Positions 7,277-51,836 of a DNA stretch of 57,861 nucleotides are shown one piece after another. The DNA comes from an uncultured Pseudomonadota bacterium (GTDB lineage: Bacteria; Babelota; Babeliae; Babelales; UASB340). Location: positions 1 through 57,861 of the forward strand of contig CAYVQB010000001.1 of NCBI GenBank assembly GCA_964453985.1, read 5' to 3'. Each line of letters opens with the position of its first letter. Position 1 is the first letter of the stretch. The notes below the pieces were generated by a model, which worked only from the letters and a program-made list of their open reading frames with translations, did no database searches and was not told the origin of the DNA. The translations under genes and the position numbers were made by a program.

Positions 7277-7345
7277 GAACAATACAAAAAGTATTGTTCG
7301 CCCCCCCAACCCTCCAACTTGTCCTAAGTTGGAGGGAATTTTTTT
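7277..7345. terminator. Two adjacent perfect stem-loops: a 9-bp AT-rich stem, then an 11-bp GC-rich stem followed by a T-run on the + strand
   Basis: GAACAATAC-aaaaa-GTATTGTTC (7277-7299); C7 tract; CCCTCCAACTT-gtcct-AAGTTGGAGGG (7310-7336), then AATTTTTTT. It sits between two minus-strand genes, so the strand of action is ambiguous. Confidence 0.5.
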
Positions 7346-7372
7346 GTTTCTATGTTAAAAAAATTCCCAATT

Positions 7373-10335: not shown

Positions 10336-10684
10336 GAGGAACCCTTTCTACAAGCAATTCTGTTGCTGCTTGAATAATTTTTTCGGACTCATTTTTATTG
10401 ATTTTTTCATCTGATATTTCATTTACAGCACATTCTAAGACGGGCATTTCAACCTCATATTTAACACTCATACTCGTCTTAAAATCATCAAGCTCTTTTT
10501 TGCTGCTTCGTTCCATCTGCAAGAGCAGTTTTTCTTTTTGAGAAATCTTTTTTTTAATTAGGTCTTCTTTTTGTTTTTTCTGGTCTAAAACCAACAAAAC
10601 CGGCTTAAACATGAATTTGTTTAAAAACCAGTAAGTTACCCAAAAGTTTAAAACCTGCAAAAATAAAGTCATGTTGATTTGCAT
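10325..10684 (-). CDS. F0 ATP synthase subunit b' (second b-type subunit)
   Basis: N-terminal TM with the FLNKFMFKPVLLVLDQKKQ pattern typical of b/b' subunits; lies directly after atpE. Confidence 0.65.
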   Translation of the reverse strand: MQINMTLFLQVLNFWVTYWFLNKFMFKPVLLVLDQKKQKEDLIKKKISQKEKLLLQMERSSKKELDDFKTSMSVKYEVEMPVLECAVNEISDEKINKNESEKIIQAATELLVERVPHVD

Positions 10685-10703
10685 GGCAAAACTCTTTTAT
10701 TTT

Positions 10704-10964
10704 TTATCTACCCACAACAAACATTAGAACTAACGCAACAAGTAATGCATAAATAGCTGAAGATTCAACAAATGCCAAAGCCACGACCATCGTACGCGTT
10801 ATAAGGCCCGCGCTCTCAGGTTTTTTGCCTATACTTTCGCAAGCTTTACCCCCAACAAATCCTTGTCCCAACGAAGGACCTATTGAGCCCAATCCCATAC
10901 AAATACCCGCTGCGACACAAGCTGATACCTTTACCCAATTTACCACTTCTACAGGTCCGGCCAT
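10704..10964 (-). CDS. atpE: F0 ATP synthase subunit c
   Basis: 86-aa hairpin proteolipid: GLGSIGPSLGQG loop region and a carboxylate in helix 2 (FVESSAIYALLVAL). Confidence 0.9.
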   Translation of the reverse strand: MAGPVEVVNWVKVSACVAAGICMGLGSIGPSLGQGFVGGKACESIGKKPESAGLITRTMVVALAFVESSAIYALLVALVLMFVVGR

Positions 10965-11003
10965 TTTATCCCTTTCAAAAAAGTATAAACTTACTTTTAA
11001 TAA

Positions 11004-11032
11004 GTATTAAGAACATTGAAGCAATTTGTCAA
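11004..11032 (-). promoter_or_regulatory. Candidate sigma70-type promoter for atpE
   Basis: On the minus strand: TTGACA (11032-11027), a 17-nt spacer, then TAATAC (11009-11004), about 40 nt upstream of the atpE ATG. Confidence 0.35.
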
Positions 11033-11057
11033 ATCTATACTAATTTATATTAAGAAA

Positions 11058-11798
11058 TTATAATCCCCTTAAACTCTTCACTCCCGTTTCCCCTGGAACA
11101 ACAAAGTCTAATCTATCAACAAAGCTTTGTACAGAATCTAAATGCTGCCTTTGTATAGTTAAATCACCCTCAAAATCAGTATTACAGTCTAAAACTAGCA
11201 CAGGCACATCAGCCAAGTAACTCATAACCTCTTTTTTATCCACAAGCCAATCATTGTGTTTCTTATTCAACTCTTGTAAATAAGAAAGTGCAATAGACTC
11301 TTCCTCGCTACGGCTTCTTTTTACAATTCTTTGATGACAAACTTCAGGGTCAGCTTGTAAGTAAATGAAACCATGAGGCTTTTTAGTGTAATTCTTAACC
11401 AACCAGCCAAACCACTCTTGATAAATTTGCCACTCTAAGGCAGACATTTTACCAGATTCATAGCAGTTTTTAGCAAAACAGAAGCGATCACAATAAACAG
11501 ATCTTTCTAGTATCTGAACAGGATATTCACCGGTACTCTTGGCCTCATGCTCAACTAAAGACTGTATTCTTGTAATAAACGCATAACACTGAAAAGTATA
11601 AGCCCAACGCTTTGCATCCTTATAAAAAAGGCCTAAAAGGTTGCCACCTTCATCTAGATTTTGCCACTTATCAGTAGGCTCAAATATAATATCTACATTA
11701 AGCTTTTCTTTTAATATCTTTAGAAAGGTTGATTTACCAACCCCTATATTGCCTTCCAATATTAACGTTTTAGTTGGCACGCAATTCTGTTTTTGCAT
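11058..11798 (-). CDS. Deoxynucleoside kinase (dCK/dGK/dNK family)
   Basis: P-loop EGNIGVGKSTF, ERS motif (ILERSVYCDR), and an arginine-rich lid (RIVKRSRSEE). Confidence 0.8.
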   Translation of the reverse strand: MQKQNCVPTKTLILEGNIGVGKSTFLKILKEKLNVDIIFEPTDKWQNLDEGGNLLGLFYKDAKRWAYTFQCYAFITRIQSLVEHEAKSTGEYPVQILERSVYCDRFCFAKNCYESGKMSALEWQIYQEWFGWLVKNYTKKPHGFIYLQADPEVCHQRIVKRSRSEEESIALSYLQELNKKHNDWLVDKKEVMSYLADVPVLVLDCNTDFEGDLTIQRQHLDSVQSFVDRLDFVVPGETGVKSLRGL

Positions 11799-11975
11799 AA
11801 TATATTCCCCTAAGCATAAAATTACTATTATTCAATCCCGTCATTTTACCTGTTTTAAACAGTATAAAAGCCGTTTAAAAATGTATTAAATTGACAACTA
11901 AGGCAATTGTATTTAAAAATTATACTCTCCATTTTAATAAATTAAAGTATAAAGAAAATTATAAAGAAAGTGTTT

Positions 11976-13445
11976 ATGAATTTTGTTAAGAAATTATTTT
12001 CGCTATTTATTTTTACGACTTTGGTAGCAGGTAGCAGCTATATTATTGCTAATGATCTCGATGATGACGATTTTGATTTTGGCTTAGACATTAACGAGAT
12101 AACACCTATAAATCTTCCTAATACACAAACAAGGGCCAACAATGACGATCTTTTACCATTCCTGGTACCTGTAGTTGAAAACATAAAAACACCCCTATGG
12201 AACCATACAAAATCTCCCAAAGGGCGAGATGCTTTGTATCTTATGCCCAACAAACTTTTGGCCATAGAGTACGGTGGAGCTGTTTTAAATCTATTTTTTA
12301 ACTATACAAATAAGATGAACTTTTCTATAGATGAAGCCCTAAAACTTACAGATAATCAAGAAGCAATCAACTCTCTAGAAACTTTTCTTGTGCACTTAAT
12401 AAACGACACATCCGCTTCCGAAGCTTCAGCTATTATGCCTTTATTTAAAAAGCTAACAATACAAGAACGAAAAGGTGGAGGGCTTATTCAAGCAGGCTTT
12501 ATAACCGGACCATTTACCTTTCAACTAAACACATCACTACAAGTATCAGAAAGAAATTTCTGGCTAAGCAAAGGTGATCAAGAAGAACTTTCAAGTATGT
12601 TTAAAGGTGCAGATTCAACTTTTGATAAAAAAGAACTCTATTTAATAAAGTATGGCTTAGGTGATACAAGACTAAAAGCAGGCCTAAATAGTCTTAATAT
12701 GAGTAGCTTTAAATTAGATGTAGGCTTTGAGGGTATCTTTCCAACAAGTAAAATATCCAGCATTCCCAGATTAAAAGCTTATGACATAAACTTAGACAAC
12801 TTCCAAACCACGCTTCCTGATGTTCTAAAAAGTATAAGAGACAATCTTATAACTCCAAGGTTAGGTAATGGTGGGCACTTTGGGTTAGGTTGCTATACAG
12901 AAGCAAAAGTGGATCTATTTCATAATGCAATACAACTGTGGGGACGATTATCTTTCGATAATTTATTTAGCGCAAAGGAAGATAGACTTATAGCCTCAAA
13001 ACAAACAATAACAAAAGTTGATCCTCTTGAACTATTGGCAGATCCAGAATATATGACAAAATTCTTGAAAGAATTTGTGTTTCCACCAGCTTACCAAGTC
13101 GTAATTCAGCCCGGAGGCATATTTAATTTTGTACTAAGCTCAACCTTTAATGTAAGTAAACGATGGGGTCTGGGCATTGGTTACGATTATTACTTGGAAC
13201 AAAAAGAATTATTTGAAAATGTTTATAACATAGAAGACGGTTCATCAGTAGACACTAGCTCATTGCGTGTTGATGATGCACAACAACCAAGCTCATCCCA
13301 ACATAAAATCTTTGCTGAGGCTAACTATACACGAAAACAACGAGGCTGGGATCTACTTCTAGGCTTAGGTGGTGACTACACAATATCAAGCAAAAGAATG
13401 GGCCATGACTGGACACTCTTTTTAAGACTAGGTGCAGCATTCTAA
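11976..13445 (+). CDS. Putative outer-membrane beta-barrel protein
   Basis: Signal peptide, alternating-hydrophobicity strands, a GLGD motif and a C-terminal ...RLGAAF (terminal Phe typical of OMPs). ATG at 11976 is preferred over the GTG at 11970. Confidence 0.5.
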   Translation: MNFVKKLFSLFIFTTLVAGSSYIIANDLDDDDFDFGLDINEITPINLPNTQTRANNDDLLPFLVPVVENIKTPLWNHTKSPKGRDALYLMPNKLLAIEYGGAVLNLFFNYTNKMNFSIDEALKLTDNQEAINSLETFLVHLINDTSASEASAIMPLFKKLTIQERKGGGLIQAGFITGPFTFQLNTSLQVSERNFWLSKGDQEELSSMFKGADSTFDKKELYLIKYGLGDTRLKAGLNSLNMSSFKLDVGFEGIFPTSKISSIPRLKAYDINLDNFQTTLPDVLKSIRDNLITPRLGNGGHFGLGCYTEAKVDLFHNAIQLWGRLSFDNLFSAKEDRLIASKQTITKVDPLELLADPEYMTKFLKEFVFPPAYQVVIQPGGIFNFVLSSTFNVSKRWGLGIGYDYYLEQKELFENVYNIEDGSSVDTSSLRVDDAQQPSSSQHKIFAEANYTRKQRGWDLLLGLGGDYTISSKRMGHDWTLFLRLGAAF

Positions 13446-36186: not shown

Positions 36187-38976
36187 ATGACTAAGCTTTT
36201 TAAAATAACTTTTATTTTAATGTTTTTTATTTTCATAACAAAAAACAACTATCACATGGGGATGCCCGCTGCATCACCAAATCCTACTGGAGGCATGTCA
36301 GGAGCCATTCCTGCAACACCCCCAATTCCAACGCCTGCACCCGCTAGTTCGCCTACACCCAGCCTCCCCGGCGGGCAAGCCAGCGTAACCCCATCAGTTG
36401 CAAAAACCTATGTCCAGATACCAAAAACTGAGCCCTTAGTGATGGGTCTGCCCAAAGAAGAAAATAAAAATAAAGAAGAAAAGATAAAAAAAGAATCCAA
36501 ACCTGCACAACCCTCACAAGCAAAGCCTGCAGGCAAACAAAAAGACAAAGAAAAAAAAGAAATTTTCTTAAATTTTGAAAATGCAGAACTTTCAAGCCTG
36601 GTAAATTACATTGCAGAGATCAAGAAAATAAACCTGATTCCTGATAAAAATTTGGCTGGTAAAAAAATATCTTTATCTATTAGAAATCCTCTTACTGTAG
36701 ATGGTGCCTGGAATATATTTTTAACAGTGCTTGATATGGGAGGCTTTACAATAGTAGAAAGAGGTGATGTTTACACCGTTGTGCCCAATAACGCCAAAGG
36801 ACAGCCGTTTAGATCTTTCATAAACACTCCATTCTTAACCTTGCCTGATAGCGATGAAGATATACGCTATGTAGTTTTTTTACAAAATATACATGTAGAA
36901 CAAATTCAAGGTTTATTACAAGGCATGTTAAGCAAGACAAGTTCTGTTGTACCCTACAAAGAAGTTAATGGTATGGTTGTAACAGACAAATCATACAATA
37001 TTAAGTCTGCGATGAAAGTTATACAAGAGCTAGATCAAACAGGATTACAAGAAACTGTTGTTGTAATGAGACTTAAACAAACTAATGCTACCGATATACA
37101 AAAACTGCTTACAAGCCTTATTCAACCAGGTCAAAACCAACAAAATCCTCTTGCTAGATTACTAGGAAGACAAGCAGAAAGTAGTCTTACATACTTTTCT
37201 CCAAGTACTAAAATTATCGCTGAAGAAAGAACAAATTCTCTAATTTTAATGGGCAACCAAAAATCAATTGAAAAAATAGAAAAATTCATTACAGACAACC
37301 TGGATACTGAACTTAAAGGCACAGAATCTCCTTTACATATTTATGAGCTACAACACACAGATGCTGAGCAAATGCGTAGAATTTTAGAAGTAGTGGTTCC
37401 TTATGATATGGCTAAGGCAAAACAAGGTGGCATCAGAGGTGGTGCAAAATACTTTAAGCCCATGAAATTTGAAATTGATAAAGACGGTAACAGATTGATT
37501 GCTTCTTCTACAGAAAAACAAGACTGGAAAATGCTAAAGAAAACAATACGTGACCTTGATAAACCTCAACCTCAAGTTGCCATAGAAACTCTAATACTTA
37601 CAGTTGACTTTAATGACCTAAAAGAATTAGGTGGTGCTCTCAGAAATAAACACGAAAATCAAATTGGGCAAGGAGTGAATTTCCAATCTCCAACCTATGC
37701 AAAAACAATTCTTAAAGGAACAGACAATAGCATTTCTCTTGCTAATATGGCACTGGGACTAACAGGAGGAGTTGGTGCAACTATTCTTACTATAGGAAAT
37801 GCCGCAAGCAAAACAGGGATCTGGGGTATTTTTAGGGCTTTAAAGCAACAAACAAATACAACTTTACTTTCTCAACCATTTTTTACTGTAGCAAATAATA
37901 CTCAAGCAGAAATTAAAATTGGAGAAACACTTAATGTAGTCAACGAAACTACAGAAAGTAAATTTAAAGGTTATACAGAAAGAACAGCTGATACAACCTT
38001 AAAAGTCACACCACAAATAAACTTAGATGGAATTATAAGATTAAAGATAGATCTTGATTTTGATTTCTTTACCGATCCAGAATTAGGAAATAAAGATACA
38101 AAAAAATTAGTAACAGACGTCTCTGTTGCAAACGGTCAAGTACTTGTTCTTGGTGGTTTTATAAAAAGCAAAACAACCGAGTTAAATAACAAAACACCAT
38201 TACTTGCAGATATTCCAATTTTAGGTTGGATGTTTAAGAATAAGAAAAAAGTAATCACAAAAAATTATTTATTGGTATTCATGTCTCCAACAATAGTAAA
38301 ACCGCGTTCGACGCCAGGAACAAACCTATACACCAATCTAAAAATAGAAGATGCAACCAATACAATTAGAGATTCAGTGCAAACAAGAAAAACAAACGAT
38401 CCAATACATAACTGGTTTTTTAATCCTGAAAAGGAAGATTACTCTTACAAAGTTACTAACTTTGCATCAGCTAAGTATCAGCCAACAAGTGTTGATATAA
38501 AAAATGATCCTTATTACAGAGCAACACCTGACGCTAAACTTAAATATATGGAAAAAATAAAGAAACAAGAACAAGAAGCTGAAGATAAATTCCTAGGCAA
38601 AACAGAACCCGACAATAATATGTTGGATAAAAAAAGAGAACAACTTAAGCAAATGCTTACAAAAAATCCAGTAATTAAAACAGAAGAACCAAAAATAGAA
38701 GCTAAACTTATTAAGCCTAAAAAACGCCAAGAATTTAAAGAAATACTTAACATCCCAAAGGTTAATAAAAAAAGAAATGCTCTGAAAAACAGGCTTACTG
38801 TAGCCCAAAATATCCCTCAAGAAGTACCAGTAAATATTGAACCTATAAAACCGTTAAGACCTACAATAGACAAAAATGAAATATTAGCTAAAGCTAATAA
38901 CATGAATTTAAATAAATTAAATAGCAGAAAAACTGTCCAAGCAGCCAGAACATTAAAAGCGAGGAGTCTGGCGTGA
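36187..38976 (+). CDS. gspD: Secretin (GspD/PilQ family) with a Pro/Ala/Thr-rich N-terminal linker and a long C-terminal extension
   Basis: N0 domain IFLNFENAELSSLVNYIAEIKKINLI. Secretin core VLVLGGFIKSKTTELNNKTPLLADIPILGWMFKNK...LLVFMSPTIV. 929 aa. Confidence 0.85.
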   Translation: MTKLFKITFILMFFIFITKNNYHMGMPAASPNPTGGMSGAIPATPPIPTPAPASSPTPSLPGGQASVTPSVAKTYVQIPKTEPLVMGLPKEENKNKEEKIKKESKPAQPSQAKPAGKQKDKEKKEIFLNFENAELSSLVNYIAEIKKINLIPDKNLAGKKISLSIRNPLTVDGAWNIFLTVLDMGGFTIVERGDVYTVVPNNAKGQPFRSFINTPFLTLPDSDEDIRYVVFLQNIHVEQIQGLLQGMLSKTSSVVPYKEVNGMVVTDKSYNIKSAMKVIQELDQTGLQETVVVMRLKQTNATDIQKLLTSLIQPGQNQQNPLARLLGRQAESSLTYFSPSTKIIAEERTNSLILMGNQKSIEKIEKFITDNLDTELKGTESPLHIYELQHTDAEQMRRILEVVVPYDMAKAKQGGIRGGAKYFKPMKFEIDKDGNRLIASSTEKQDWKMLKKTIRDLDKPQPQVAIETLILTVDFNDLKELGGALRNKHENQIGQGVNFQSPTYAKTILKGTDNSISLANMALGLTGGVGATILTIGNAASKTGIWGIFRALKQQTNTTLLSQPFFTVANNTQAEIKIGETLNVVNETTESKFKGYTERTADTTLKVTPQINLDGIIRLKIDLDFDFFTDPELGNKDTKKLVTDVSVANGQVLVLGGFIKSKTTELNNKTPLLADIPILGWMFKNKKKVITKNYLLVFMSPTIVKPRSTPGTNLYTNLKIEDATNTIRDSVQTRKTNDPIHNWFFNPEKEDYSYKVTNFASAKYQPTSVDIKNDPYYRATPDAKLKYMEKIKKQEQEAEDKFLGKTEPDNNMLDKKREQLKQMLTKNPVIKTEEPKIEAKLIKPKKRQEFKEILNIPKVNKKRNALKNRLTVAQNIPQEVPVNIEPIKPLRPTIDKNEILAKANNMNLNKLNSRKTVQAARTLKARSLA

Positions 38977-40646
38977 TAAAAGAAATATTCTTACCTGAAA
39001 AAATTGGTAATAAAAGATTATACTCTGAAAAAATACTAGGTTTTACTATTCAAGAAAATATTATTACCTGTGCAAAAATATTTGCTAAGCCTTCAAAAAC
39101 AATAATAGAACAAATAATATCAAAAGAAATTCCTGAGGAACAAAGTTCAGAAGATTTTACACATTTTGCATCCAAAGCAATAAAAGAAATTATAAAAGAA
39201 CTAGGCAAATATGACAAAATCAGAATTTCTATACCATCTTCTTTGGTAATCTTTAAAGAACTAGAAGTGCCTTTTAAGGACCCAGACAAGATAAGAATGA
39301 TCCTTGATTATGAAATAGAATCTATGCTTCCATTTTCTATGGAAGAATCAATAATAGATTTTATAATCACAAAACAAGAACTAAAAGAAACCAAATCTAT
39401 AATACTCGCCGCAGCAGTAAGAAAAGAAGATTTGAGCTCTATACTAGATATTTATACAAATGCAGGTATAAAACCAAATAATATCACCATAGATCTATTT
39501 GCAATCTATAGCCTTTACCAACAAATTCCTGAATACCAAGAAATTAAAAATGCTAGCGCATTAGTTGATCTAGGGCTAGGCTCAACACGTGTATCGGTTC
39601 TATTAGATGGACAACTAAGACTCACTAGAGTTCTGCCTAGAGGCTTATTAACAATCGCTAAAATAATAAGTGATGAACTCAATAGACCGTTAAAAGAAAT
39701 TGAAACAAAATTATTAAACTATGGTCTTGCAATTACACATGACGAGCAATATGATAAATCATTAAAAAAACATGTAATTAATTTTTTTAATGATATTCAA
39801 TTCACATTAAATTCTTTTAGCCTAAAATTAAATTTTTACCAAGGAATAAGCAAAATACTATTTACAGGAAGATGCTCACAGATTAAAGATCTGGCAAAAC
39901 TTGGTAATAATATTCTCCAGATTCCATGTGATATTTTTGATTTCGAAAAAATATTTGTAAACAAACTTTTTAAAAATAAATTAAAAACTATACCGTATGA
40001 TTCAAATTTATATTTAGCCGCTCTAGGCACGGCTTTGCCAAGCGATCAACAAGACCAGTTTGACTTAAGAAGAAAAATTTTTGCGATACAAGAAGATAAT
40101 ATTACAAGAAAACAAATTATCAGTGCACTAATAATAATATTTGCTATATTCACAACCATATCTATCACTGGGTATATACAAATTAATACACTAACCCAAA
40201 ACTTCAATAGGATAGAACAAAGGCAAACCGAAAAGTTACGTCTAATATTCCCTGTACCAGCTAAAATACCAAAAAATATTAGTCTCAGAAATTTAATGCA
40301 GAGAGCAAAAAACTTAATACAAGACAAAGTACAAATGTGGGAGCCATTCAAAAAAGAAAAATTACACCCACTAGAAATATTACAAGAACTCACAAATATT
40401 ATAGATAAAAGACGCTTTGATGTAACAATAGAAGAAGTAATAATTTCCCAAGAAGATGGAATTCCAAAAGCAGAAGTAGAGGGTTATTTCAGATCAAAAA
40501 CAGGAAGTAATCATTTCAAATATTTTGAAGAATTAGAAAAAAGATTTGTAGATTCACGTTTTTTCACTTTGGAAGAAGAAATAGATCCAAAAGGGGTAGA
40601 AGACAAGGGCGTTAAATTTATAGCAAAATTAAGAATTCAAGAATAA
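38973..40646 (+). CDS. GspL-like / PilM-PilN-fusion-like assembly platform protein (actin-like cytoplasmic domain, one TM, periplasmic domain)
   Basis: The GTG start overlaps the secretin stop and has a GAGGAG Shine-Dalgarno. PilM-type VDLGLGSTRVSVLLDGQLRLTRVLPRGL. TM IISALIIIFAIFTTISITGYI around aa 385. Confidence 0.5.
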   Translation: MIKEIFLPEKIGNKRLYSEKILGFTIQENIITCAKIFAKPSKTIIEQIISKEIPEEQSSEDFTHFASKAIKEIIKELGKYDKIRISIPSSLVIFKELEVPFKDPDKIRMILDYEIESMLPFSMEESIIDFIITKQELKETKSIILAAAVRKEDLSSILDIYTNAGIKPNNITIDLFAIYSLYQQIPEYQEIKNASALVDLGLGSTRVSVLLDGQLRLTRVLPRGLLTIAKIISDELNRPLKEIETKLLNYGLAITHDEQYDKSLKKHVINFFNDIQFTLNSFSLKLNFYQGISKILFTGRCSQIKDLAKLGNNILQIPCDIFDFEKIFVNKLFKNKLKTIPYDSNLYLAALGTALPSDQQDQFDLRRKIFAIQEDNITRKQIISALIIIFAIFTTISITGYIQINTLTQNFNRIEQRQTEKLRLIFPVPAKIPKNISLRNLMQRAKNLIQDKVQMWEPFKKEKLHPLEILQELTNIIDKRRFDVTIEEVIISQEDGIPKAEVEGYFRSKTGSNHFKYFEELEKRFVDSRFFTLEEEIDPKGVEDKGVKFIAKLRIQE

Positions 40647-40672
40647 TTAAAGGGCGAACGGCGTATAAAACT

Positions 40673-41224
40673 ATGAAAGCTTTAACAAACCTATCAAATT
40701 ACCTACAAAGTCTTAGTAAAAAAGAATTTAAAAAATATTTAATTATATTTATAAGCGCCATAACTTTGTTAACTATATTTGCGATATATTATGTATATAA
40801 TACAAGTTCAAACTTAACAAAAGAAATAAAAACCCTTGAAAAACTTGCAAATGAAACTATAGAAATAATAAACAAAAATGCAAAACTAAATTTAGAAGAA
40901 AACAAACTAAAAGAGTTATTAAACAAAAACATGGGTTTTAATATTAAAACTTATTTTGAACAATTTATAAAAGAACAAAACATTACCCCTGAAGCCAATT
41001 GGGGAGATAATACCTTTACTCAAGCAGTAGAAGGCAATGATAAATTTGACGAAGTAGTACTTACTGCTACATTCAAAAATCAGACAATGCAAGAATTAGT
41101 TAAAATTTTAGATGTTCTTAAAAAGAATGAAATGCTTTATATAAAACAACTTTTAATAAAAAACCAAGATAATAAAAAAATAGAATTTACTCTTACCCTA
41201 GCAGCAAAAAAATATAAGAAATAA
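40673..41224 (+). CDS. GspM/PilO-like bitopic protein (assignment by topology and position only)
   Basis: 183 aa with an N-terminal TM (YLIIFISAITLLTIFAIYYVY), a coiled coil and a small C-terminal domain. Lies between the platform gene and the second secretin. Confidence 0.35.
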   Translation: MKALTNLSNYLQSLSKKEFKKYLIIFISAITLLTIFAIYYVYNTSSNLTKEIKTLEKLANETIEIINKNAKLNLEENKLKELLNKNMGFNIKTYFEQFIKEQNITPEANWGDNTFTQAVEGNDKFDEVVLTATFKNQTMQELVKILDVLKKNEMLYIKQLLIKNQDNKKIEFTLTLAAKKYKK

Positions 41225-41242
41225 AACTTGGGGACAATTTAG

Positions 41243-43675
41243 ATGATTAAGAAAATATTATTAATATCAATGTTTTTTGCAAACATGATCTTTATTTGTA
41301 AAACAGAAAAAGACATAATAAAAAATGAAACTCCCTCCATACATCCAAAAGCAAACGTCGTAATTAATAATAATCCAAAAAAGCCTACAAGTGACAATAA
41401 AAATACAGATAAAACTAAAACTGATAATAAAAAACAAAAAGACACAAAAGTATTTCTAAACTTTGATAATATATCACTTTCAAACGTTGTTACATATATT
41501 GCAGAAAGAAAAAAGATAGATATTATATATCCCAAACCAGAATTAAAAGCTCAATTTGATAATCAAAAAGTCTCTTTAACTACCCACAAAGCCCTCTCTT
41601 TAGATAGTGCATGGGATATTCTTTTAACCCTTCTAGAACTAAATAACTTTACAATAATCAATGTTGATGGAATTTATAGAGTTGCATCAAAAGCAGATAA
41701 TTCTAAAGAACCGTTGCCATTCTATTCTTCTGGAACAGGAACAGAACCTGAAGATCTTCCAGAATCCGACATTATTGTTCGTTATGTATATTTCCTTAAA
41801 AATATACAGGCACAAGGGGTAAAGCCTATTATAGACACTATGTTAGACCAGCCTGCTCAAATAAATGCCGACCTACAAGCCTTTATAATTACAGATAAAT
41901 GTATAAATATTAAAGCTGCTATGGCAGTAATAAAAGAGCTGGATCAGGGAGGGCTAAGAGAGTCTATTAAGGTGATTAAGTTAAATCATACAAACGTAAA
42001 CGATATAAAAATTTTATTCGATAAAATCATACCAAAACAAAATCAAAATAGTGCCGTAAGGTTCATAGGACCTTCCCCAGAAAAACCCTCTAGTTATTTT
42101 TCTTCATCCACAAGAATTATTCCTGATACTAGAAACAACTCTTTGATATTATTAGGAACAGAAAAAGGAATAACCAATATTATTAATTTCATTCAAAAAA
42201 ACATAGATATTCCACTTACTTCTGCTCAATCAAGACTACATATAAAAGAACTAAAATATGCAAAAGCACAAGACCTTATAAGAATACTAAAAGAGATAGT
42301 CAAAAGACCTGCAGGAGAACAAAAAACAGAACAGATGGGGCAATATAAATTTTTTGAAGATGTTCATATGGTTGCAGACTCTCAACAAACTGATGGTGGT
42401 GGTGGAGCCGGCAATAGGTTGGTTATATCTTGCAACAAGGAAGACTGGATAAGGCTTTCCAAATTTATAGATAAACTTGATAAACCTCAACCTCAAGTAG
42501 CCTTTGAAGTAATGATAGTTAAAGCATTTATAGAAAGAGACAAAGTTCTGGATGCTACTTTTAAACCAAAAAATCAAGGCCTGTTTGGCAAAGGAACAAA
42601 TGTACGTTTTATGAACCAAGGAAAAGCAGCCGATATATCCACAACAGGCGAACTAACTCCAATAACTATTAACCAGGAAGATGGAGCAACTCTAACTCTT
42701 GGAAAATATGATTCTCTAGGAGCAAATCTTTGGGCAGTAGTCCAAGCAACTTTAAAAACAGACAATTTCAATGTTATAGCCCAACCCTTTTTAGTAACCA
42801 ATAATAATAGCCCTTGTACATTTGATGCAAGTTCAATTCGTTGGGTGCCCGGAAAATTAAATACTAGTGTGGGCACACAACCTGTACAATCTAAAAACCA
42901 AGCTAAAGCACGAACAGTTGTTAAGCTAACACCTGAAATTAACTCCACAGGCCAAATAGCCTTAAAAATAGTCGTCGATTCTGATGATTACCAATCCGCA
43001 GCCCAAACAGATGCCAATAGAGATACAAGAAAATTAGATACCAAAGTAGTTATTGGAACAGGAGAGGTTCTTACCTTAGGAGGCTTAACAAAAGACGAAG
43101 TACAAGATAAAGATTATAAAACTCCAATTTTAGGAGACATTCCAATTTTAGGAAATTTTTTTAAAGCTAAATCTAAAGTGACAAAAAAAACCACCTTATA
43201 TATATTCATTAGACCAAGTATTATAAAACCTGAACTAGAAGGCGGCGTAGATGAATATACACAATTAAAACTGGATTACGCAAAACGCCAAATAATAAAT
43301 GCAGACACTTATTATACAGAAAAAGACCCTATTCAAAGATGGTTCTTTAAGCCTGAAGGTGAATCTATAAAACAAACAATATCTGATGCGCGCAAGGGAA
43401 TTTATAGACCTATTGATAACTTTGCATACGGGTCCAAACAACCAAGATCTGTAGATATACGATATGATGATTATTATAGAGCAGAAGAAGGCGTACAAGA
43501 AGAAGTTAAAAAAATTCTGCCTGCAGTAAAATTTACAGAGATAGATAAAAAACCTCCTGCAAGCGAGAAAATAGAAGTTGTCACTCTTAACAAACCAAAA
43601 GCAACCCAGACCAAAAATATCGTAATAAATAGAAACAAACGCATAGGACTTAAGAGCAGACTCAGCGAACGATAA
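41243..43675 (+). CDS. Second secretin (GspD/PilQ family) paralog
   Basis: N0 domain VFLNFDNISLSNVVTYIAERKKIDII. Secretin core VLTLGGLTKDEVQDKDYKTPILGDIPILGNFFKAK...LYIFIRPSII. The C-terminal extension is homologous to that of the first secretin. Confidence 0.85.
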   Translation: MIKKILLISMFFANMIFICKTEKDIIKNETPSIHPKANVVINNNPKKPTSDNKNTDKTKTDNKKQKDTKVFLNFDNISLSNVVTYIAERKKIDIIYPKPELKAQFDNQKVSLTTHKALSLDSAWDILLTLLELNNFTIINVDGIYRVASKADNSKEPLPFYSSGTGTEPEDLPESDIIVRYVYFLKNIQAQGVKPIIDTMLDQPAQINADLQAFIITDKCINIKAAMAVIKELDQGGLRESIKVIKLNHTNVNDIKILFDKIIPKQNQNSAVRFIGPSPEKPSSYFSSSTRIIPDTRNNSLILLGTEKGITNIINFIQKNIDIPLTSAQSRLHIKELKYAKAQDLIRILKEIVKRPAGEQKTEQMGQYKFFEDVHMVADSQQTDGGGGAGNRLVISCNKEDWIRLSKFIDKLDKPQPQVAFEVMIVKAFIERDKVLDATFKPKNQGLFGKGTNVRFMNQGKAADISTTGELTPITINQEDGATLTLGKYDSLGANLWAVVQATLKTDNFNVIAQPFLVTNNNSPCTFDASSIRWVPGKLNTSVGTQPVQSKNQAKARTVVKLTPEINSTGQIALKIVVDSDDYQSAAQTDANRDTRKLDTKVVIGTGEVLTLGGLTKDEVQDKDYKTPILGDIPILGNFFKAKSKVTKKTTLYIFIRPSIIKPELEGGVDEYTQLKLDYAKRQIINADTYYTEKDPIQRWFFKPEGESIKQTISDARKGIYRPIDNFAYGSKQPRSVDIRYDDYYRAEEGVQEEVKKILPAVKFTEIDKKPPASEKIEVVTLNKPKATQTKNIVINRNKRIGLKSRLSER

Positions 43676-46269: not shown

Positions 46270-46614
46270 ATGTTTACCTTTTTATTTTCAGCTCTACAGG
46301 CAGCCGAACAAACCTCCGCTCCAGCAAAAAGTGCCGGCATGGGAGCTATCGGTATTTTTGCTCAATTATTACCATTTATACTAATCGCTATAATATTTTA
46401 TTTTTTCATAATAAGACCTCAAAGCAAACAACGTCAACTATTAAAACAAATGATCGATAACATAAATATAGGCGACAAAGTTATAACAAAAGGTGGAATC
46501 ATTGGAACAATTTCACAAATATTAGAAAATTCTTTCATAATAAATTTATATGATGGCAGCAAGCTAGAGATACTCAAAAATGCCGTCATATCCATGATTA
46601 ATGACAACCAATAG
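46270..46614 (+). CDS. yajC: Preprotein translocase subunit YajC
   Basis: One TM, then IIRPQSKQRQLLKQMIDNINIGDKVITKGGIIGTI, the YajC signature. Confidence 0.8.
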   Translation: MFTFLFSALQAAEQTSAPAKSAGMGAIGIFAQLLPFILIAIIFYFFIIRPQSKQRQLLKQMIDNINIGDKVITKGGIIGTISQILENSFIINLYDGSKLEILKNAVISMINDNQ

Positions 46615-47710
46615 ATTTCCAGCTTTTCTTTATCCGCTAATAAGCTTAATGGTAGGCATATACTGGCAAGACAGTTATGCCTACTCTTTTTTACTACTAA
46701 TAACAAGTATAATAACCTCTCTTTTGTTTTTGTTCTTTCAACGCACAAAAACAAAAGCTGTATTGCTTCTTACTTGCTCCTTCTGTTTCTTTTCAGGAGC
46801 ACTATTACTTAAAACGCAAAAAATAGTAAACTGCTCTTTTCTAGATATCCTTGCTGATAAAAAAATAAATTTAATTGCAAAAATAATAGATAAGGAACGT
46901 GAAAATATCGGAAACAACAGGACTAGAGATATTCTTAAGCTATCAGTAATAGAAATACAAGAAGATTTACATTTAAAATATCAATCAGCCAAATTCAACC
47001 TACTCTGCTACTCATATACTCCCATAAATGCACAAATAGGCGACTCGATATTAGCCAAAAACATTATCTTAAAAAAGCCAAAACAAACAAGTATAATGGC
47101 ACAAAACAGAAATTTTAACGACTATCTAATAAAAGAAAACATATTAAACTGCGTCTTTATAAGAAAGCTTTATTATAAAATTATCTATTCACCTAAGCTT
47201 AACTTAAACAGGTGGATACAAAACAAAAAACATTCTATCTATTCAAGCCTTAAAGAAAAAATAATGCCAGAGACCTTTTCATTCTTCTCTTCTATTTTTC
47301 TAGGCTATAAGAAGCTCTTGTACTCAAGCAATTTGAGACAAAAATTTGGCTACTGGGGCATATCTCACTATCTAGCTAGGTCTGGCCTGCATATAGTACT
47401 TTTCATCTTACTGTGGAGCTTCTTGTTAGGATTTTTGCCACTAAATATATATATCAAACGAGTTCTTTTATTGTGTGTTTGCCTAATCTATCAAATATTC
47501 AGCTGGATCAGCATTTCTTTCATTAGGGCTTTTTGTGTTTTTCTTATATATCAAACTGGTAAAATATTTAACAAACAAACTAATTTTTTGCACATACTAA
47601 CGCTAGTCTGTTTGATTATTTTGCTATTTAATCCCATGCAATTATTTTTCTTAGACTTTCAACTCAGCTTTGCTTTAACATTTGCATTAGCCTGGCCTCA
47701 AAGTAGTTAG
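46601..47710 (+). CDS. comEC: ComEC/Rec2-family competence channel protein, apparently truncated at the 3' end
   Basis: N-terminal TM plus OB-like region, and the start of the competence domain (GISHYLARSGLHIVLF...FIRAF...LDFQLSFALTFA). It ends soon after the FQLSFA block, and no metallo-beta-lactamase domain is present. Confidence 0.6.
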   Translation: MTTNRFPAFLYPLISLMVGIYWQDSYAYSFLLLITSIITSLLFLFFQRTKTKAVLLLTCSFCFFSGALLLKTQKIVNCSFLDILADKKINLIAKIIDKERENIGNNRTRDILKLSVIEIQEDLHLKYQSAKFNLLCYSYTPINAQIGDSILAKNIILKKPKQTSIMAQNRNFNDYLIKENILNCVFIRKLYYKIIYSPKLNLNRWIQNKKHSIYSSLKEKIMPETFSFFSSIFLGYKKLLYSSNLRQKFGYWGISHYLARSGLHIVLFILLWSFLLGFLPLNIYIKRVLLLCVCLIYQIFSWISISFIRAFCVFLIYQTGKIFNKQTNFLHILTLVCLIILLFNPMQLFFLDFQLSFALTFALAWPQSS

Positions 47711-47718
47711 TTCAACCT

Positions 47719-48159
47719 CTATGAATCATTCTTTTTTTCTCTTTTTACTTTATACACCTCAGGCTCTGCACGAGAAATTATATCTATAGAATAATCTATA
47801 TCTCCAGTCATATAGTGTTTTAAATCAGGATTTATACCCAAAAGAACACCTTGTGATTCTTTATCTAACTTTTTTAAATATTCAGAATTTTTAACTTCTA
47901 TAAAAAGCCAACGCTCCGGCGTTTTCATCATGTGATGATCCAAACGCCTACCCTCGTCAGAAACTCTATAATCCTCCATAGAATGACCAAAATCAAATAC
48001 AACATCATAAGAAAAATCAGGTTCTTTGCAGAAAGCTACCCTAAGCCCTTTATCATCTGTAATTATATAAGATAAAAAATGATCCGGGCTTAATCTTTTG
48101 CCTATTTCTTTAGGTAGTTTAAATTCTAGAAACTCCATTAAATACCCTTCAATCATCAT
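47719..48159 (-). CDS. Small acidic cytoplasmic protein; candidate immunity/antidote partner of the upstream Hint-domain protein
   Basis: 146 aa with no signal peptide. The start overlaps the last 11 nt of the 48149-49081 gene. No family was recognised, so the functional call is by context only. Confidence 0.4.
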   Translation of the reverse strand: MMIEGYLMEFLEFKLPKEIGKRLSPDHFLSYIITDDKGLRVAFCKEPDFSYDVVFDFGHSMEDYRVSDEGRRLDHHMMKTPERWLFIEVKNSEYLKKLDKESQGVLLGINPDLKHYMTGDIDYSIDIISRAEPEVYKVKREKKNDS

Positions 48160-49081
48160 ATCTTACTTTTGTAGAATCATTCTTACCATGTTGTACTTCT
48201 ACTGTTGGTTCATTTCCAGATCTCTCACCAGAATAAGGCCTATTTATAACGTTTGCCCCATGCCTATCTGTGCCTACTTGAATTGTGCCTTTATCTGTTT
48301 TTATTGTACGTACATCTCTTCCTTCGGTGAGTTTTTCAAAATCTTTGCCTCTTTGTTCTTTTCCACCAGGCTTTTTATAAACATCTGAGCTTCCATTCGG
48401 TTTTTTTACAGAATCAGAACCCCTTAAGACATCATCTAAGTCAGAGTTAGGCTTACGGATATTTTCCTCGAGCTTCTCAGCACAATGTTTAACAAAAGCC
48501 CCTGCTATTATTGCACACAAAGCCTTAAGAGAAATAATAGCCAGATCTCCTCCAAAAGTCCAAGTTAAGACTGGAATTGAAAGTGCAAAATTATGGACTA
48601 ATATATGCGTACGCCCCTCAGTAAGGATCAGAAACAGATGTCCATCTTTTATTGCAACCTCATACAATTTGACTTGGTTTTGAAGTCGCTTTTTTAAAAC
48701 ACTTACTACCTTAATATTACCTTTCTCTGGAGAGAACAATATATCTCCAGCTCGAAATTCTTCTGCAGCAACAAAACGCTTGGCTAGCCTATTGTAAAGC
48801 TTTTGCTTTGGGCCAACAGTTAATACATCGTTTTCAGTTTTAATTAATATAATTTCTTTAAGCTTTCTTGATGCCACTACTTCTATCTTCTTTTTTTGTC
48901 TTTCAAATTTGCGCGTTGGAATATTGTAAATTGGAACATAGTCCCCAAATTTTAAATCTTTAGCCTTTTTATAAACCCCATTCCCCATGAAAACCATTGT
49001 TTCCGGTAAAAGCCCAGAAAAAACACTAGTAAAATTTGTAAGCACAAAAAACATTAAAACAATTTTTTTAAAAATTTTCAT
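48149..49081 (-). CDS. Secreted Hint-domain protein with a hydrophobic linker and a basic C-terminal domain (candidate toxin/effector)
   Basis: Signal peptide ...FTSVFSG. Hint block A LLPETMVFMGNGVYKKAKDLKFGDYV. Terminal blocks LYEVAIKDGHLFLILTEGRTHILVHN. Followed by 146 aa that include a Lys/Arg/Gly-rich domain. Confidence 0.7.
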   Translation of the reverse strand: MKIFKKIVLMFFVLTNFTSVFSGLLPETMVFMGNGVYKKAKDLKFGDYVPIYNIPTRKFERQKKKIEVVASRKLKEIILIKTENDVLTVGPKQKLYNRLAKRFVAAEEFRAGDILFSPEKGNIKVVSVLKKRLQNQVKLYEVAIKDGHLFLILTEGRTHILVHNFALSIPVLTWTFGGDLAIISLKALCAIIAGAFVKHCAEKLEENIRKPNSDLDDVLRGSDSVKKPNGSSDVYKKPGGKEQRGKDFEKLTEGRDVRTIKTDKGTIQVGTDRHGANVINRPYSGERSGNEPTVEVQHGKNDSTKVRYDD

Positions 49082-49098
49082 TAAAACTTTTCCTTATC

Positions 49099-50274
49099 TT
49101 AAAGATTATTATATGTAGCAAAAACAACTTCAATAGGATTACCATTAATATCAAAGAACTGTTCTGTATCAAATATTTCTGCACCTCCAGGAACCTCTTG
49201 ATATGATTGCTCTAAGACGTGTTCATCAACCTCATATTCAAAGTCAGCGCCAAAAAAATCAACATCCTCACCCTCACGCCTTTCCGTTTCTACAACAAGA
49301 TCTTCAATTTTTTGATCTATAAAACCATAAGAGCTCTTTGCACTATGAGAAACAGCTTCTGTTGCAACTACTCCAATAAAAATTGTTTTTTTTAATTTTG
49401 CCAGCACAGCCAAGGCCTGAAGAATCTTTTTTTCTACTGCGGCAGACTTTACAACTCCATTTAAAGCTACTTTAGTCTTCGCCGCCGCCCCAGAGCTAGC
49501 AAAAATTTTGTCTACAAATGAGGGCGCATACTTCACACCCAAACAAATTCCATAATATGTAACAGCGGCAAGAGCAGCCCCAGAAACAGCTCCAACCAAA
49601 CACCCTTTTAGCACAGTACTTGATGATACTTTTATCTTTTTTACATATGACTTATAAACTACAAGACTGCCACCAACAACTGCCCCAACAACTGCACCAA
49701 TAATAAGAACCCCAACTATCCCTATTACATTGTGAGTTAAAAGCCTATTTCCATTAGAATCAAGTAGATAAAAAGTACTACTTCTACCTACCGATATTTC
49801 ATATAGATCTATGCTACCTGGAAATTCTACATCTTGAATATCTTTTACTTTGAACTTTTCGTTATTATATCCAAAAAGAAACATGTTTTGCTGTAGATAT
49901 GCAGCATCAATCCACGAAACAGAAACAGACTCATCGTCATAATCACAAGCATCCAACTGTATACAAAATTTTTGATCTGATCCCACCATTATAGAACTTA
50001 TCGCTCCCTTACTAGATTCTAAAACCAACAAAGTTGCACGAGACACAAAGCCTCTATTTAATTTTATTCCAGAAACACTCCCATACGTATGCCTGAGCTG
50101 ATAAGGTGTCGGATTTGAACAAACCACATGATCGCCAAGTTTTAATTCTTTAACAGCACAACAACCATCTTGTCCCGTATAAATAACATTGTCTGGAAGC
50201 AGCCCTGAAAAAACATAGCTTGGACTGAATATAAATAAAAATAGAAAATAATAAAAACATCTAAGCTTACACAC
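49099..50274 (-). CDS. Secreted Hint-domain protein with a glycine-zipper-rich membrane region and an acidic C-terminus
   Basis: Signal peptide ...PSYVFSG. Hint block A LLPDNVIYTGQDGCCAVKELKLGDHV. Terminal LYEISVGRSSTFYLLDSNGNRLLTHN. Then IGIVGVLIIGAVVGAVVGGSLVVY and GCLVGAVSGAALAAV. GTG start. Confidence 0.7.
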   Translation of the reverse strand: MCKLRCFYYFLFLFIFSPSYVFSGLLPDNVIYTGQDGCCAVKELKLGDHVVCSNPTPYQLRHTYGSVSGIKLNRGFVSRATLLVLESSKGAISSIMVGSDQKFCIQLDACDYDDESVSVSWIDAAYLQQNMFLFGYNNEKFKVKDIQDVEFPGSIDLYEISVGRSSTFYLLDSNGNRLLTHNVIGIVGVLIIGAVVGAVVGGSLVVYKSYVKKIKVSSSTVLKGCLVGAVSGAALAAVTYYGICLGVKYAPSFVDKIFASSGAAAKTKVALNGVVKSAAVEKKILQALAVLAKLKKTIFIGVVATEAVSHSAKSSYGFIDQKIEDLVVETERREGEDVDFFGADFEYEVDEHVLEQSYQEVPGGAEIFDTEQFFDINGNPIEVVFATYNNL

Positions 50275-50468: not shown

Positions 50469-51836
50469 ATGAAAAAGCTTTTTTGTTCCATAGCAGCAAT
50501 ATTGGCCTATTGCTTCGTTACAACAACAGCAACAATACAAAAACCAACACTAGACACAACAAGTACAACAACCCAAAACCTATCTTCAAACAAAAACCCC
50601 CAAAATAATCAACCAAAAAAAGACTGGAACTTTCTCGTATACATAACAGCAAATAACGATCTTTATAGATTCGCACTAAAAAACATAAATCAAATGTTAA
50701 AAGTAGGCTCAAGCCAACATATAAACGTTATAGTGCAAATGGATACATACGGTAAAAGCGAAGTATGTAGATATTACGTAGAAAAAAACAACCTAATACC
50801 ACTTAACCTGCAAAGCAATAACCTAGAAAGCACATCAGGAACGCCAGAAAGTCTTTATAAGTTTGTGGAGTGGAGCACAACAAACTTTGCCGCAGAGCAT
50901 CAAGCTCTTGTAATATGGGATCATGGCTCAGGAATAGAAGATCCTGCCGGATGGAGAAAATTATGGCAAGGAATTGAAAAGCTAGAAGAAAAAGGCATAG
51001 CCTTCAATGAAATTTTTCAAACCTATATAAACAACCAAGGACTTACAAGCGCTCTTGAGGGAATTTCAAAAAACCTGCTCGCGGGCAAAAAAGTAGACAT
51101 AGTAGCAATGGATGCATGCAACATGGCCATGCTTGAAGTAGGCTCACAAATAAAAGAATACGTAGACTTCATGGTGGGATCAGAAAACGTAGAACCAGGA
51201 ACAGGGTGGAACTACGAACTTGTATTAAAAGAATTTCAACAAAAAACAATGACTCCTGAAGAATTTGCAAAACATATGGTAAATAAATACAGGGAAGCAT
51301 ATTATATATCAGGAATAAAATACACCCAATCAGCTATAAACCTAAACAAACATGCCCAACTAGAACAAAATATCGATACCGTAGCAGGCTTCCTGCTAAG
51401 CTTTCTTTCTAGTAAAGATAAAATAAAAATACTGAATCAAATAAAAAGAATTCGCAACAGCCGAATGCTAACAACTGTATTTCCTGACGACGCCTACACA
51501 AGCAATGGCAACTATATAGACCTGTATCACTTCTACAAAAGCCTTTTAGAAAAACTAAACCAACTTTATCCAAGCATCAAAGATATAGATAAACTTAAAA
51601 GTTTAACTTTTTTTCTATATAATGGCTTAAATATAATATTAGAAAACGTAATAGAAAATGCAGCAAGCCCAAACCTTAAAGACACAAAAGGAGTAGCAGT
51701 ATACTTCCCAACAAACCAAATACATTCTTCATACCCTAAAACAATTTTTGCACAAGACAACCAATGGAAAACATTTTTACAAAAATATATAAAAGAAACA
51801 AAACAGATATATGGAAAAAACAAAAAAATACTTTGA
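50469..51836 (+). CDS. Secreted clostripain-like (peptidase family C11) cysteine protease
   Basis: Signal peptide plus Thr/Asn/Gln-rich linker. DWNFLVYITANNDL, a catalytic-His context LVIWDHGSG and a catalytic-Cys context VAMDACNMAMLEV. Confidence 0.7.
   Translation: MKKLFCSIAAILAYCFVTTTATIQKPTLDTTSTTTQNLSSNKNPQNNQPKKDWNFLVYITANNDLYRFALKNINQMLKVGSSQHINVIVQMDTYGKSEVCRYYVEKNNLIPLNLQSNNLESTSGTPESLYKFVEWSTTNFAAEHQALVIWDHGSGIEDPAGWRKLWQGIEKLEEKGIAFNEIFQTYINNQGLTSALEGISKNLLAGKKVDIVAMDACNMAMLEVGSQIKEYVDFMVGSENVEPGTGWNYELVLKEFQQKTMTPEEFAKHMVNKYREAYYISGIKYTQSAINLNKHAQLEQNIDTVAGFLLSFLSSKDKIKILNQIKRIRNSRMLTTVFPDDAYTSNGNYIDLYHFYKSLLEKLNQLYPSIKDIDKLKSLTFFLYNGLNIILENVIENAASPNLKDTKGVAVYFPTNQIHSSYPKTIFAQDNQWKTFLQKYIKETKQIYGKNKKIL

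Follow-up and report, generated by a model that had tools for sequence, protein, structure and literature searches.

The MafB/MafI polymorphic toxins of Neisseria reportedly carry alternative C-terminal cassettes, as described by Jamet and co-workers in 2015. Hedgehog/Hog proteins are secreted and have an autoprocessing C-terminal Hint domain, whose first cysteine (Cys1) releases and lipidates the N-terminal cargo. Polymorphic toxins of the Sec/type II secretion system (Sec/T2SS), which combine a signal peptide with a HINT protease, are a listed class (Table 1 in Zhang et al., 2012; PMC3482391). Type A bacterial intein-like domains (BILs) end in His-Asn, have no nucleophile at the following (+1) position and cleave their C-terminal bond via Asn cyclization, for which Cys1 is dispensable (PMC4031507). 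Here, we analyzed a contig of 57,861 nucleotides (CAYVQB010000001.1 of GenBank assembly GCA_964453985.1), which as a whole is called the window. The list of its open reading frames (ORFs) and their translations contains three co-directional minus-strand genes, referred to as prot1, prot2 and orf3.

The sequence-only reading of this DNA had described two adjacent minus-strand genes for a signal peptide and a Hint domain with differing C-termini, and had proposed that they form a toxin-immunity cassette with a small downstream ORF. The ORFs are located exactly where they had been placed (Table 1). We assign a probability of roughly 0.8 to the reading that this is a three-gene operon in which prot2 encodes a polymorphic toxin of the Sec class and orf3 the matching immunity protein, with the Hint domain of prot2 cleaving its own C-terminal bond. 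The cassette interpretation could be kept for prot2 and orf3 but not for prot1, since the C-terminus of the latter is conserved among its relatives, with no immunity-like gene behind it.

The C-Terminal Domain of prot2 Is Found on Unrelated Carriers

Full-length relatives of prot2 are rare, only six being found among 5.8 billion proteins. A profile of the last ~90 residues matched 137 proteins, which span Spirochaetota, Bacillota, Gamma-, Beta- and Alphaproteobacteria, and Margulisbacteria. The module is located at the C-terminus of RHS/TcdB, MafB, hemagglutinin-repeat (CdiA-like), DUF6531 and PT-HINT proteins from at least five phyla; unrelated carrier architectures share the same C-terminal domain. 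Its N-terminal flank is the end of an RHS core (P0026, Brucepastera), of MafB (P0078, N. gonorrhoeae) or of PT-HINT (P0107), and one of the matches carries the name filamentous hemagglutinin. The search with the 93-amino-acid (aa) profile gave proteins of up to 181 aa only, and the relatives of 310–341 aa were absent from its output; the full-length carriers were recovered through genomic context and with tblastn against plasmids. The plasmid search showed that the last ~85 residues of the Duffyella pEM02 hemagglutinin-repeat protein and of a 3056-aa DUF6531 protein from Lactococcus correspond to this domain.

The consensus of the domain is G.KTKG.TKQ.EK.GG...A.KDFD.L....G.LPDGR.V.VR..SSDGRPTLEI....IKIRY, and the conserved residues in prot2 are F248, G275, R281, S284, P292-T293, E295, K305, R307 and Y308. 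A canonical member (P0025) matches the PHROG family phrog_18811, which is annotated as toxin (E 3e-8).

orf3 Homologues Accompany the Toxin Domain

Homologues of orf3 are rare (17 clusters, none annotated), and in every locus examined one is encoded directly downstream of the toxin domain. With the orf3 hidden Markov model (HMM), the gene just downstream of the toxin gave E values of 6e-46 in Cohnella, 1.5e-19 in Duffyella, 2e-17 in Serratia, 1e-15 in Neisseria, 4e-13 in Brucepastera and 3.6e-10 in Lactococcus; the remaining neighbor genes had E > 0.01. Other relatives of the cassette are found in metagenome-assembled genomes (MAGs), among whose labels is "Candidatus Dependentiae bacterium." The nearest relatives of the host of the operon seem to be Dependentiae (TM6)-like MAGs, and we infer a Dependentiae-like origin for the window. 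In these Dependentiae-like loci, one to three orf3-type copies are located behind each prot2-type gene. Altogether, the orf3 family tracks the prot2-type C-terminal domain in Dependentiae-like loci and six other genera, as expected from the earlier proposal, which required conservation of the small ORF together with the gene upstream of it.

The pair also occurs in reduced forms. In locus L006, a head-less toxin of 176 aa and the immunity gene adjoin a serine recombinase, and in L004 a 53-aa toxin remnant and the immunity gene form an orphan pair. In the latter (positions 5835–6438, GCA_030640815.1), the 53-aa ORF (…GFLPDGRKVVSRDFS…KIKIRYID) is the sole relic of the toxin domain; the intact orf3 homologue next to it looks like an orphan immunity gene that was kept past the decay of its toxin.

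An exchange of the C-terminus is seen when the toxin of L020 is compared with protein P0174 from L014. The two are 48% identical over residues 1–215, which comprise the signal peptide, the Hint domain and the hydrophobic segment, and share nothing beyond. Behind this part, the L020 toxin continues into the canonical domain, with an orf3-type gene downstream, whereas the C-terminus of P0174 is DUF4258-like (Pfam, E 0.0046) and is followed by a different gene of 129 aa. The two downstream ORFs are unrelated (E 0.66). Here, the head is conserved, and the C-terminus and the downstream gene have been replaced together. Invariant C-termini, which would have spoken against the sequence-only reading, are not what the relatives show.

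The C-terminal end of P0174 itself (residues 360–380, …NIKVITNTNGDVVTIHNI; L014 5001–6143) resembles the C-terminal block of the Hint domain (…NIFFILNSRGDPVLAHNI; BLASTP E 0.065). This likeness could be due to chance, or recombination at the end of the Hint domain could have left it behind.

The related loci also bear on the question against whom such toxins might be directed. Eukaryote-like proteins with LRR, RING, WD40 and C2H2 domains are encoded near the cassette, and together with the "Candidatus Dependentiae" MAGs they would suit host-directed effectors, that is, exported Hint toxins with which a seemingly Dependentiae-like intracellular parasite would hit its protist host while orf3 only shields the producer before export. 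We consider this improbable, because immunity genes are duplicated (three and two copies in L001) and orphaned beside a decayed toxin (L004), which is typical of bacterial conflict, and because the same pair belongs to interbacterial MafB, CdiA-like and RHS systems of free-living bacteria. Action against a host and action against bacteria are, moreover, compatible with each other.

In Serratia fonticola (CP072742.1, L011 1–14543), the toxin/immunity pair is found inside a tandemly duplicated unit of ~9 kb, which contains a primase-like gene, a phage-type integrase, SymE-like toxins and helix-turn-helix regulators. These integrase, primase-like and related genes indicate that a mobile element carries the pair in this locus. 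The Duffyella pair is encoded among conjugation genes of an integrative and conjugative element, beside a SymE gene. In L007 (4794–6717), the signal-peptide-Hint toxin gene is split into ORFs of 67 and 367 aa, by a frameshift or an assembly error, and a long Asn/Ser/Pro-rich low-complexity linker leads up to the same toxin domain. Behind the toxin are two immunity copies, one complete and one truncated, and RING-finger and WD40 genes are nearby.

Predicted Structures and Putative Target of the Toxin

The sequence-only reading could place neither the C-termini of prot1 and prot2 nor the small ORF in a recognized family, and scans of Pfam, NCBIfam and the PDB agree with this. Searches of the PDB with toxin-domain profiles of 9 and 78 sequences and with the orf3 profile yielded chance matches only (PPR repeats, eIF2-gamma, SadP). 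orf3 and six homologues matched no Pfam, NCBIfam or PHROG family and none of the described immunity families (Pfam Imm*, SUKH, SuFu and others).

In the AlphaFold2 (AF2) model of prot2, residues 211–310 have a predicted local distance difference test score (pLDDT) of 72–90; a short helix and a strand at their N-terminal end precede a further strand, one helix and another five strands. When the whole prot2 model was compared by Foldseek, Hint domains were the only matches. The orf3 model has a pLDDT of 82 and a predicted template modeling score of 0.77; Foldseek found nothing significant for it in the PDB (best E 0.11; PIM7/8owu, E 0.46). Kinship with the PT7/PIM7 pair (8owu) was rejected, as PT7 is an LXG-linked His/Asp metallo-DNase that is unrelated to the prot2 toxin domain. 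A barnase-like "GRT..E" resemblance noticed by eye was also dropped: the 78-sequence profile gave a probability below 1% when compared by hhalign with manually entered sequences of barnase and RelE, and profiles lend no support to a similarity with the BECR fold or with barnase/RelE ribonucleases (RNases).

The target of the toxin is most likely a nucleic acid, for instance RNA, although the reasons are weak: the domain is small, basic and of the alpha+beta type, has invariant Arg, Ser, Thr, Glu, Lys and Arg-Tyr residues with no His or metal motif, and is paired with a cytoplasmic immunity protein. The conserved R281, S284, T293, E295, K305, R307 and Y308 would suit a metal-independent RNase, which is a guess.

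Predicted Signal Peptides and Hint Domains of prot1 and prot2

Signal peptides were called by inspection, family alignment and Kyte-Doolittle hydropathy. In both proteins, a basic n-region is followed by a hydrophobic core and by a junction (SYVFSG in prot1, TSVFSG in prot2) with Val at -3 and Ser at -1, so that VFS/G is compatible with a signal peptidase I site. The n-, h- and c-regions and the V-x-S/G site are conserved in both families, and the junction is their best-conserved stretch; F21, G23, L24, P26, T28 and V30 are invariant in the prot2 family, as is LLP in the prot1 family. On the DNA level, the signal-peptide/Hint junctions (…FSGLLP…) at 49002–49025 and 50192–50215 are 79% identical over 24 nucleotides (nt; repeat D2). 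This identity fits an origin by tandem duplication and marks a possible recombination site.

prot2 matches Pfam PT-HINT (PF07591) over residues 37–164 with 28.8 bits (gathering score 27.7, E 1.7e-6). The best PDB matches of the prot2 family profile are BILs, namely 6tmm/6y75 (Tetrahymena BUBL BIL2, E 8e-7) and 2lwy from C. thermocellum (E 2e-6), the latter alignment reaching the last residue of the BIL. BILs and inteins are also the top Foldseek matches of the AF2 model (E 1.5e-4). prot1 alone has no Pfam match. BLASTP aligns it with prot2 over residues 10–182 (E 2e-8), and hhalign of the two families gives 99.9% (E 1.3e-31) over the signal peptide and the Hint domain only; the alignment ends just past the Hint, and the C-termini are unrelated. 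Two relatives of prot1, P0159 and P0166, are above the PT-HINT cut-off, and the prot1 family profile matches BIL 2lwy with E 9.7e-5. Thus, both heads are Hint domains by sequence, that of prot2 also by its predicted fold, as the earlier reading had claimed.

The catalytic residues are only partly retained. The position of Cys1 is occupied by Gly23 in prot2 and Gly24 in prot1, in ungapped register with BIL2 (the PDB entry is named C1A-N143A), and by G, N, D or S in relatives. The block-B His (TxxH) is replaced by Gln in both families (QKL/QKF; Gln93 in prot2 and Gln101 in prot1); a canonical Neisseria PT-HINT keeps this His (..IHPFY), and so does L007. The domains end in His163-Asn164, followed by Phe, in prot2 and in His181-Asn182 in prot1, a pair that is invariant or nearly so in both families (~30 members) while the identity of the surrounding columns averages 31–53%. 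In the prot1 family alignment, Q101, L179, H181 and N182 are all invariant. At +1, the 30 members examined have F, V, I, L, A, M, Y or E, and none of them has C, S or T. Loss of Cys1, the block-B His and the +1 nucleophile means that neither Hint can splice or form an N-terminal thioester, and C-terminal self-cleavage by Asn cyclization is plausible as the sole Hint chemistry left to them.

The absence of both Cys1 and the block-B His could be taken further, in that the heads may be catalytically dead and the full-length proteins act without cleavage, the Hint domain being a folded carrier or adhesion module; paralogues with a dead Hint, which lack His-Asn, are present in the same loci, and decay of the domain does happen. 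This is unlikely, since the terminal His-Asn stands out so clearly against its surroundings in both families and since Asn cyclization needs no Cys1 (PMC4031507).

Proposed Export and Release, and the Hydrophobic Segment

In the proposed mechanism, prot2 would be exported by its N-terminal signal peptide, and signal peptidase cutting at VFS/G would leave the Hint domain at the very start of the mature protein. Asn cyclization at the Hint end would then free a fragment of ~146 residues, in which a hydrophobic helix and a basic linker precede the toxin domain of ~90 residues, and orf3 would remain in the cytoplasm and bind and neutralize the toxin.

All members of the prot2 and prot1 families examined have a hydrophobic stretch behind His-Asn (Kyte-Doolittle 1.6–2.8), often with basic clusters next to it. 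Such a stretch is likewise found upstream of the same toxin domain in the RHS-type relatives P0026 and P0105. It may act as a stop-transfer anchor, or as a helix by which the released fragment enters a membrane once Hint cleavage has exposed it. An anchor would suit a toxin-antitoxin pair that is tethered to the membrane and not secreted, with the Hint periplasmic and the toxin kept in the cytoplasm on orf3, serving addiction or abortive infection. The hydrophobic 19-mer of prot2 (Kyte-Doolittle 2.07) is followed by basic residues, which fits the positive-inside rule; K/R clusters recur behind the segment in many homologues, and orf3 lacks a signal peptide. Nevertheless, we regard such a module as very unlikely, because elsewhere the toxin domain is the cargo of exported RHS/Tc, MafB and hemagglutinin-repeat carriers, also behind a hydrophobic stretch, because charges interrupt the segment in several homologues (e.g., LEKVVEATF in P0004), and because PADLOC gave nothing convincing (best E 0.0076 for orf3 and 0.037 for prot2).

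Several points weigh against the assignment of prot2 and orf3 as an exported toxin and its immunity protein. The hydrophobic segment of prot2 with the basic residues after it resembles a stop-transfer anchor, which would hold the toxin in the cytoplasm of the producer, and with nothing upstream of the Hint domain there is no obvious stalk from which a toxin would have to be freed. AF2 modeled the Hint part with low confidence (pLDDT 30–76). Only one clear swap was found, and most Dependentiae-like relatives keep the same C-terminal domain. For prot2 and nine canonical members, scans revealed no Pfam, NCBIfam or PDB relative of the toxin domain; with no such relative and a barnase/RelE probability below 1%, the idea of an RNase derives from the residue pattern alone. 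Finally, the window toxin has TDRHGA where the family consensus is LPDGR, and could therefore be attenuated.

The uncultured host of the operon is a diderm, as LpxK is present. Two secretin genes (929 and 810 aa; Secretin, Secretin_N and GspD N0 domains) are located in the window at 36187–43675, 4–11 kb from the operon, with a PilM-like gene (38973–40646) between them. In L001, a secretin gene (758–2410) precedes the toxin array at a distance of ~1.5 kb, and a single LRR gene separates the two. These neighboring secretins may offer the toxin an export route through the outer membrane, which is suggestive only.

prot1 Is the Conserved First Gene

The prot1 family has 35 representatives in 1.84 billion proteins, all with a single architecture: predicted signal peptide, Hint domain, two Gly-rich hydrophobic helices and their Lys-rich loop, a middle part that varies, and the acidic and terminal motifs. 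A prot1-like gene leads the operon in each locus with upstream sequence (the window, L001, L008, L009, L014, L019 and L020). G197, G201, G224, G228 and G232 of the hairpin are nearly invariant; the Pfam Gly-zipper match is weak (E 0.77). The C-terminal region contains an acidic motif (E.RE.EDIDFSG.D; pI 4.05 for residues 300–391) and a terminal motif (D.NGNPIRD..G....F) that is common to the dead-Hint paralogues, and has no match in Pfam, NCBIfam, PADLOC, the PDB or PHROG. As far as the sequences tell, prot1 is a paralogue that shares the head of prot2 and is not polymorphic. Its head, the conserved hairpin and acidic tail, and its constant place as first gene suggest that it is probably a membrane-active partner that would aid release or entry at the membrane, or else a separate membrane toxin.

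In other genomes, a dead-Hint paralogue often comes next after prot1. These paralogues (L001 4998–5990, L008 1642–2532, L009 411–1538, L014 7262–8302) lack the SGLLP junction and the terminal His-Asn and keep the hydrophobic Gly-rich segment and a D.NGN.IK...G....L motif. L001 holds eight Hint-family and five orf3-type genes in ~8 kb (3932–12212): prot1-like and dead-Hint genes, two prot2-like genes with three and two immunity copies, and a truncated head of 239 aa, with LRR-repeat proteins on both sides.

The conserved GxxxG-rich membrane hairpin raises the question whether prot1 is a glycine-zipper pore-forming toxin, for which the dead-Hint paralogue elsewhere would be the immunity protein or a decoy; in L001, L008 and L009, such paralogues with matching membrane and C-terminal motifs are encoded directly downstream. 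This remains doubtful, since the window operon contains no dead-Hint paralogue between prot1 and prot2, which would leave the producer unprotected, since the C-terminus is conserved rather than polymorphic, and since no pore-forming toxin family or structure was matched. A more speculative idea, in which we place little confidence, sees the Hint domain as a self-removing cap and not as a device that frees a toxin from a stalk: Asn cyclization after export would bare the hydrophobic helix of prot2 and a glycine-zipper pore-former in prot1, and the two proteins would achieve delivery with no filament, shell or secretion machine, with which obligate intracellular Dependentiae would combat co-infecting relatives in a shared protist host.

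Gene Organization and Genomic Setting

The features of the operon are listed in Table 1.

Table 1. Features of the prot1-prot2-orf3 operon, with positions in the window.
Feature	Position	Strand	Characteristics or basis
prot1 gene (391 aa)	49099..50274	-	GTG start, AGGAG ribosome-binding site; signal peptide, Hint, glycine-zipper membrane hairpin, acidic C-terminal region
prot1 predicted signal peptide, residues 1–23 (...SYVFS/G)	50206..50274	-	sequence, family alignment, N-terminal hydrophobic core
prot1 Hint, residues 24–182	49729..50205	-	hhalign to prot2 family; relatives above PT-HINT cut-off; BIL 2lwy match
prot1 hydrophobic Gly-rich hairpin, residues 183–247 (GAVVGAVVGG...KGCLVGAVSGAALAA), two predicted membrane helices	49534..49728	-	Kyte-Doolittle 19-mer up to 2.78
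prot1 C-terminal region, residues 248–391	49102..49533	-	variable middle, acidic motif, terminal motif
prot2 gene (310 aa)	48149..49081	-	AAGGA ribosome-binding site; signal peptide, Hint, hydrophobic segment, linker, C-terminal toxin domain
prot2 predicted signal peptide, residues 1–22 (MKIFKK-IVLMFFVL-TNFTSVFS/G)	49016..49081	-	hydropathy 2.03; F21 and G23 family-invariant
prot2 Hint, residues 23–164	48590..49015	-	Pfam PT-HINT above cut-off; BIL matches by sequence and fold
prot2 post-Hint hydrophobic segment (residues ~165–198) and charged linker (to 217)	48431..48589	-	Kyte-Doolittle 2.07
prot2 C-terminal toxin domain, residues 218–310	48152..48430	-	family profile, conservation, carrier contexts, AF2 pLDDT 72–90
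orf3 (146 aa as longest ORF; predicted cognate immunity protein)	47719..48159	-	no signal peptide, no hydrophobic segment

prot1 and prot2 are spaced by 17 nt. An 11-nt overlap of orf3 with prot2 had been reported, which applies only to the longest ORF. The start of orf3 is probably at 48138 (139 aa), because Met8 corresponds to the first residue of close homologues (MEF/MKF..FKLP) and has a GAAGGG ribosome-binding site; this leaves a gap of 10 nt, and the coupling is tight either way. The small protein had also been described as acidic, which is true but mild (isoelectric point, pI, 5.4 compared with 9.7 for prot2).

The G+C content of the window is ~32%. No tRNA genes and no direct or inverted repeats that would mark an island were found in the flanks of the cassette, and a promoter and terminator scan was uninformative. 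On the plus strand, a ComEC-like ORF (46601–47710) covers positions 2–136 of 270 in the Pfam Competence model and stops 9 nt short of the convergent orf3 stop; its 3′ half may have been replaced by the cassette, or a short form of the gene may be normal for this lineage. On the other side, a plus-strand gene (50469–51836) for a peptidase C11 (clostripain family) with an apparent signal peptide is divergent from prot1, separated by a spacer of 194 nt, and is not among the called neighbors in the related loci examined.

Implications of the Operon

A literature search for Dependentiae together with "polymorphic toxin" found nothing, and a Dependentiae-like setting is new for such an operon. Also new are the reduction of the carrier to a nucleophile-less Hint domain that begins at the predicted signal-peptidase site, the conserved three-gene operon that opens with a Hint-plus-glycine-zipper paralogue, and toxin and immunity families that have no Pfam or NCBIfam model despite their wide spread, gonococcal maf cassettes included. 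This pair, unseen by both databases, is present in maf islands of N. gonorrhoeae, in Serratia, Yersinia, Enterococcus and Lactococcus, and in many metagenomes, and could now be named as a family pair. With a predicted signal peptide and a Hint domain that would retain C-terminal-cutting chemistry only, the minimal carrier would be a small and clean model of Hint-mediated toxin release. That such operons occur in Dependentiae-like intracellular bacteria, with immunity genes that are duplicated or orphaned, points to conflict of bacterium against bacterium inside protists. The operon extends a known class and does not overturn current understanding.

Comparison With Known Systems

The membership of the window locus in the class of polymorphic toxin-immunity systems with Sec signal peptide and HINT is supported by four lines of sequence comparison, and one homologue of prot2 is labeled "polymorphic toxin-type HINT domain-containing protein" by NCBI. 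The sequence-only reading had called the architecture stripped-down. The carrier is indeed reduced, but this makes it a variant of a class that is already listed (PMC3482391). As in the Sec/T2SS class of Zhang et al. (2012), a predicted signal peptide and a Hint domain precede a variable C-terminal toxin with the immunity gene directly downstream, orphan toxin/immunity cassettes occur, and the C-terminal domain is common to different carriers. Unlike in that class, the window proteins have no stalk, repeat or adhesion region, and the predicted first mature residue belongs to the Hint domain, which lacks Cys1 and the block-B His and has a hydrophobic segment behind its His-Asn; in addition, a Hint-plus-glycine-zipper paralogue always precedes the toxin gene, and toxin and immunity protein have no Pfam or NCBIfam model.

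The toxin domain shared with the MafB/MafI systems is located behind a MafB N-terminal region in P0078 (Pfam MafB end, E 2.4e-4), and N. gonorrhoeae also has an orphan cassette of the same domain, with an orf3 homologue next to it each time (E 1e-15). There, the carrier is the MafB N-domain (DUF1020) in place of the Hint head, and identity to the sequences of the window is ~30%. The same toxin and immunity pair also ends the Duffyella pEM02 and the 3056-aa Lactococcus DUF6531/RHS-type proteins, as in CdiA-CT/CdiI and RHS/Tc/WapA systems, and Brucepastera and Cohnella have toxin/immunity cassettes behind TcdB/RHS genes. CdiA, RHS, Tc and WapA proteins are huge filaments or shells with dedicated secretion systems, whereas the carrier in the window comprises ~140 residues.

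The closest match of the Hint heads in sequence and fold are the type A BILs (2lwy; 6tmm/6y75), with which they share the His-Asn end and the lack of a +1 nucleophile. BILs have kept Cys1, which makes an N-terminal thioester for ligation or conjugation possible, whereas the window Hints have Gly at this position and Gln for the block-B His. Hedgehog/Hog proteins, which are secreted and have an autoprocessing Hint domain, are comparable; the window proteins differ from them in having their cargo behind the Hint domain and in lacking Cys1.

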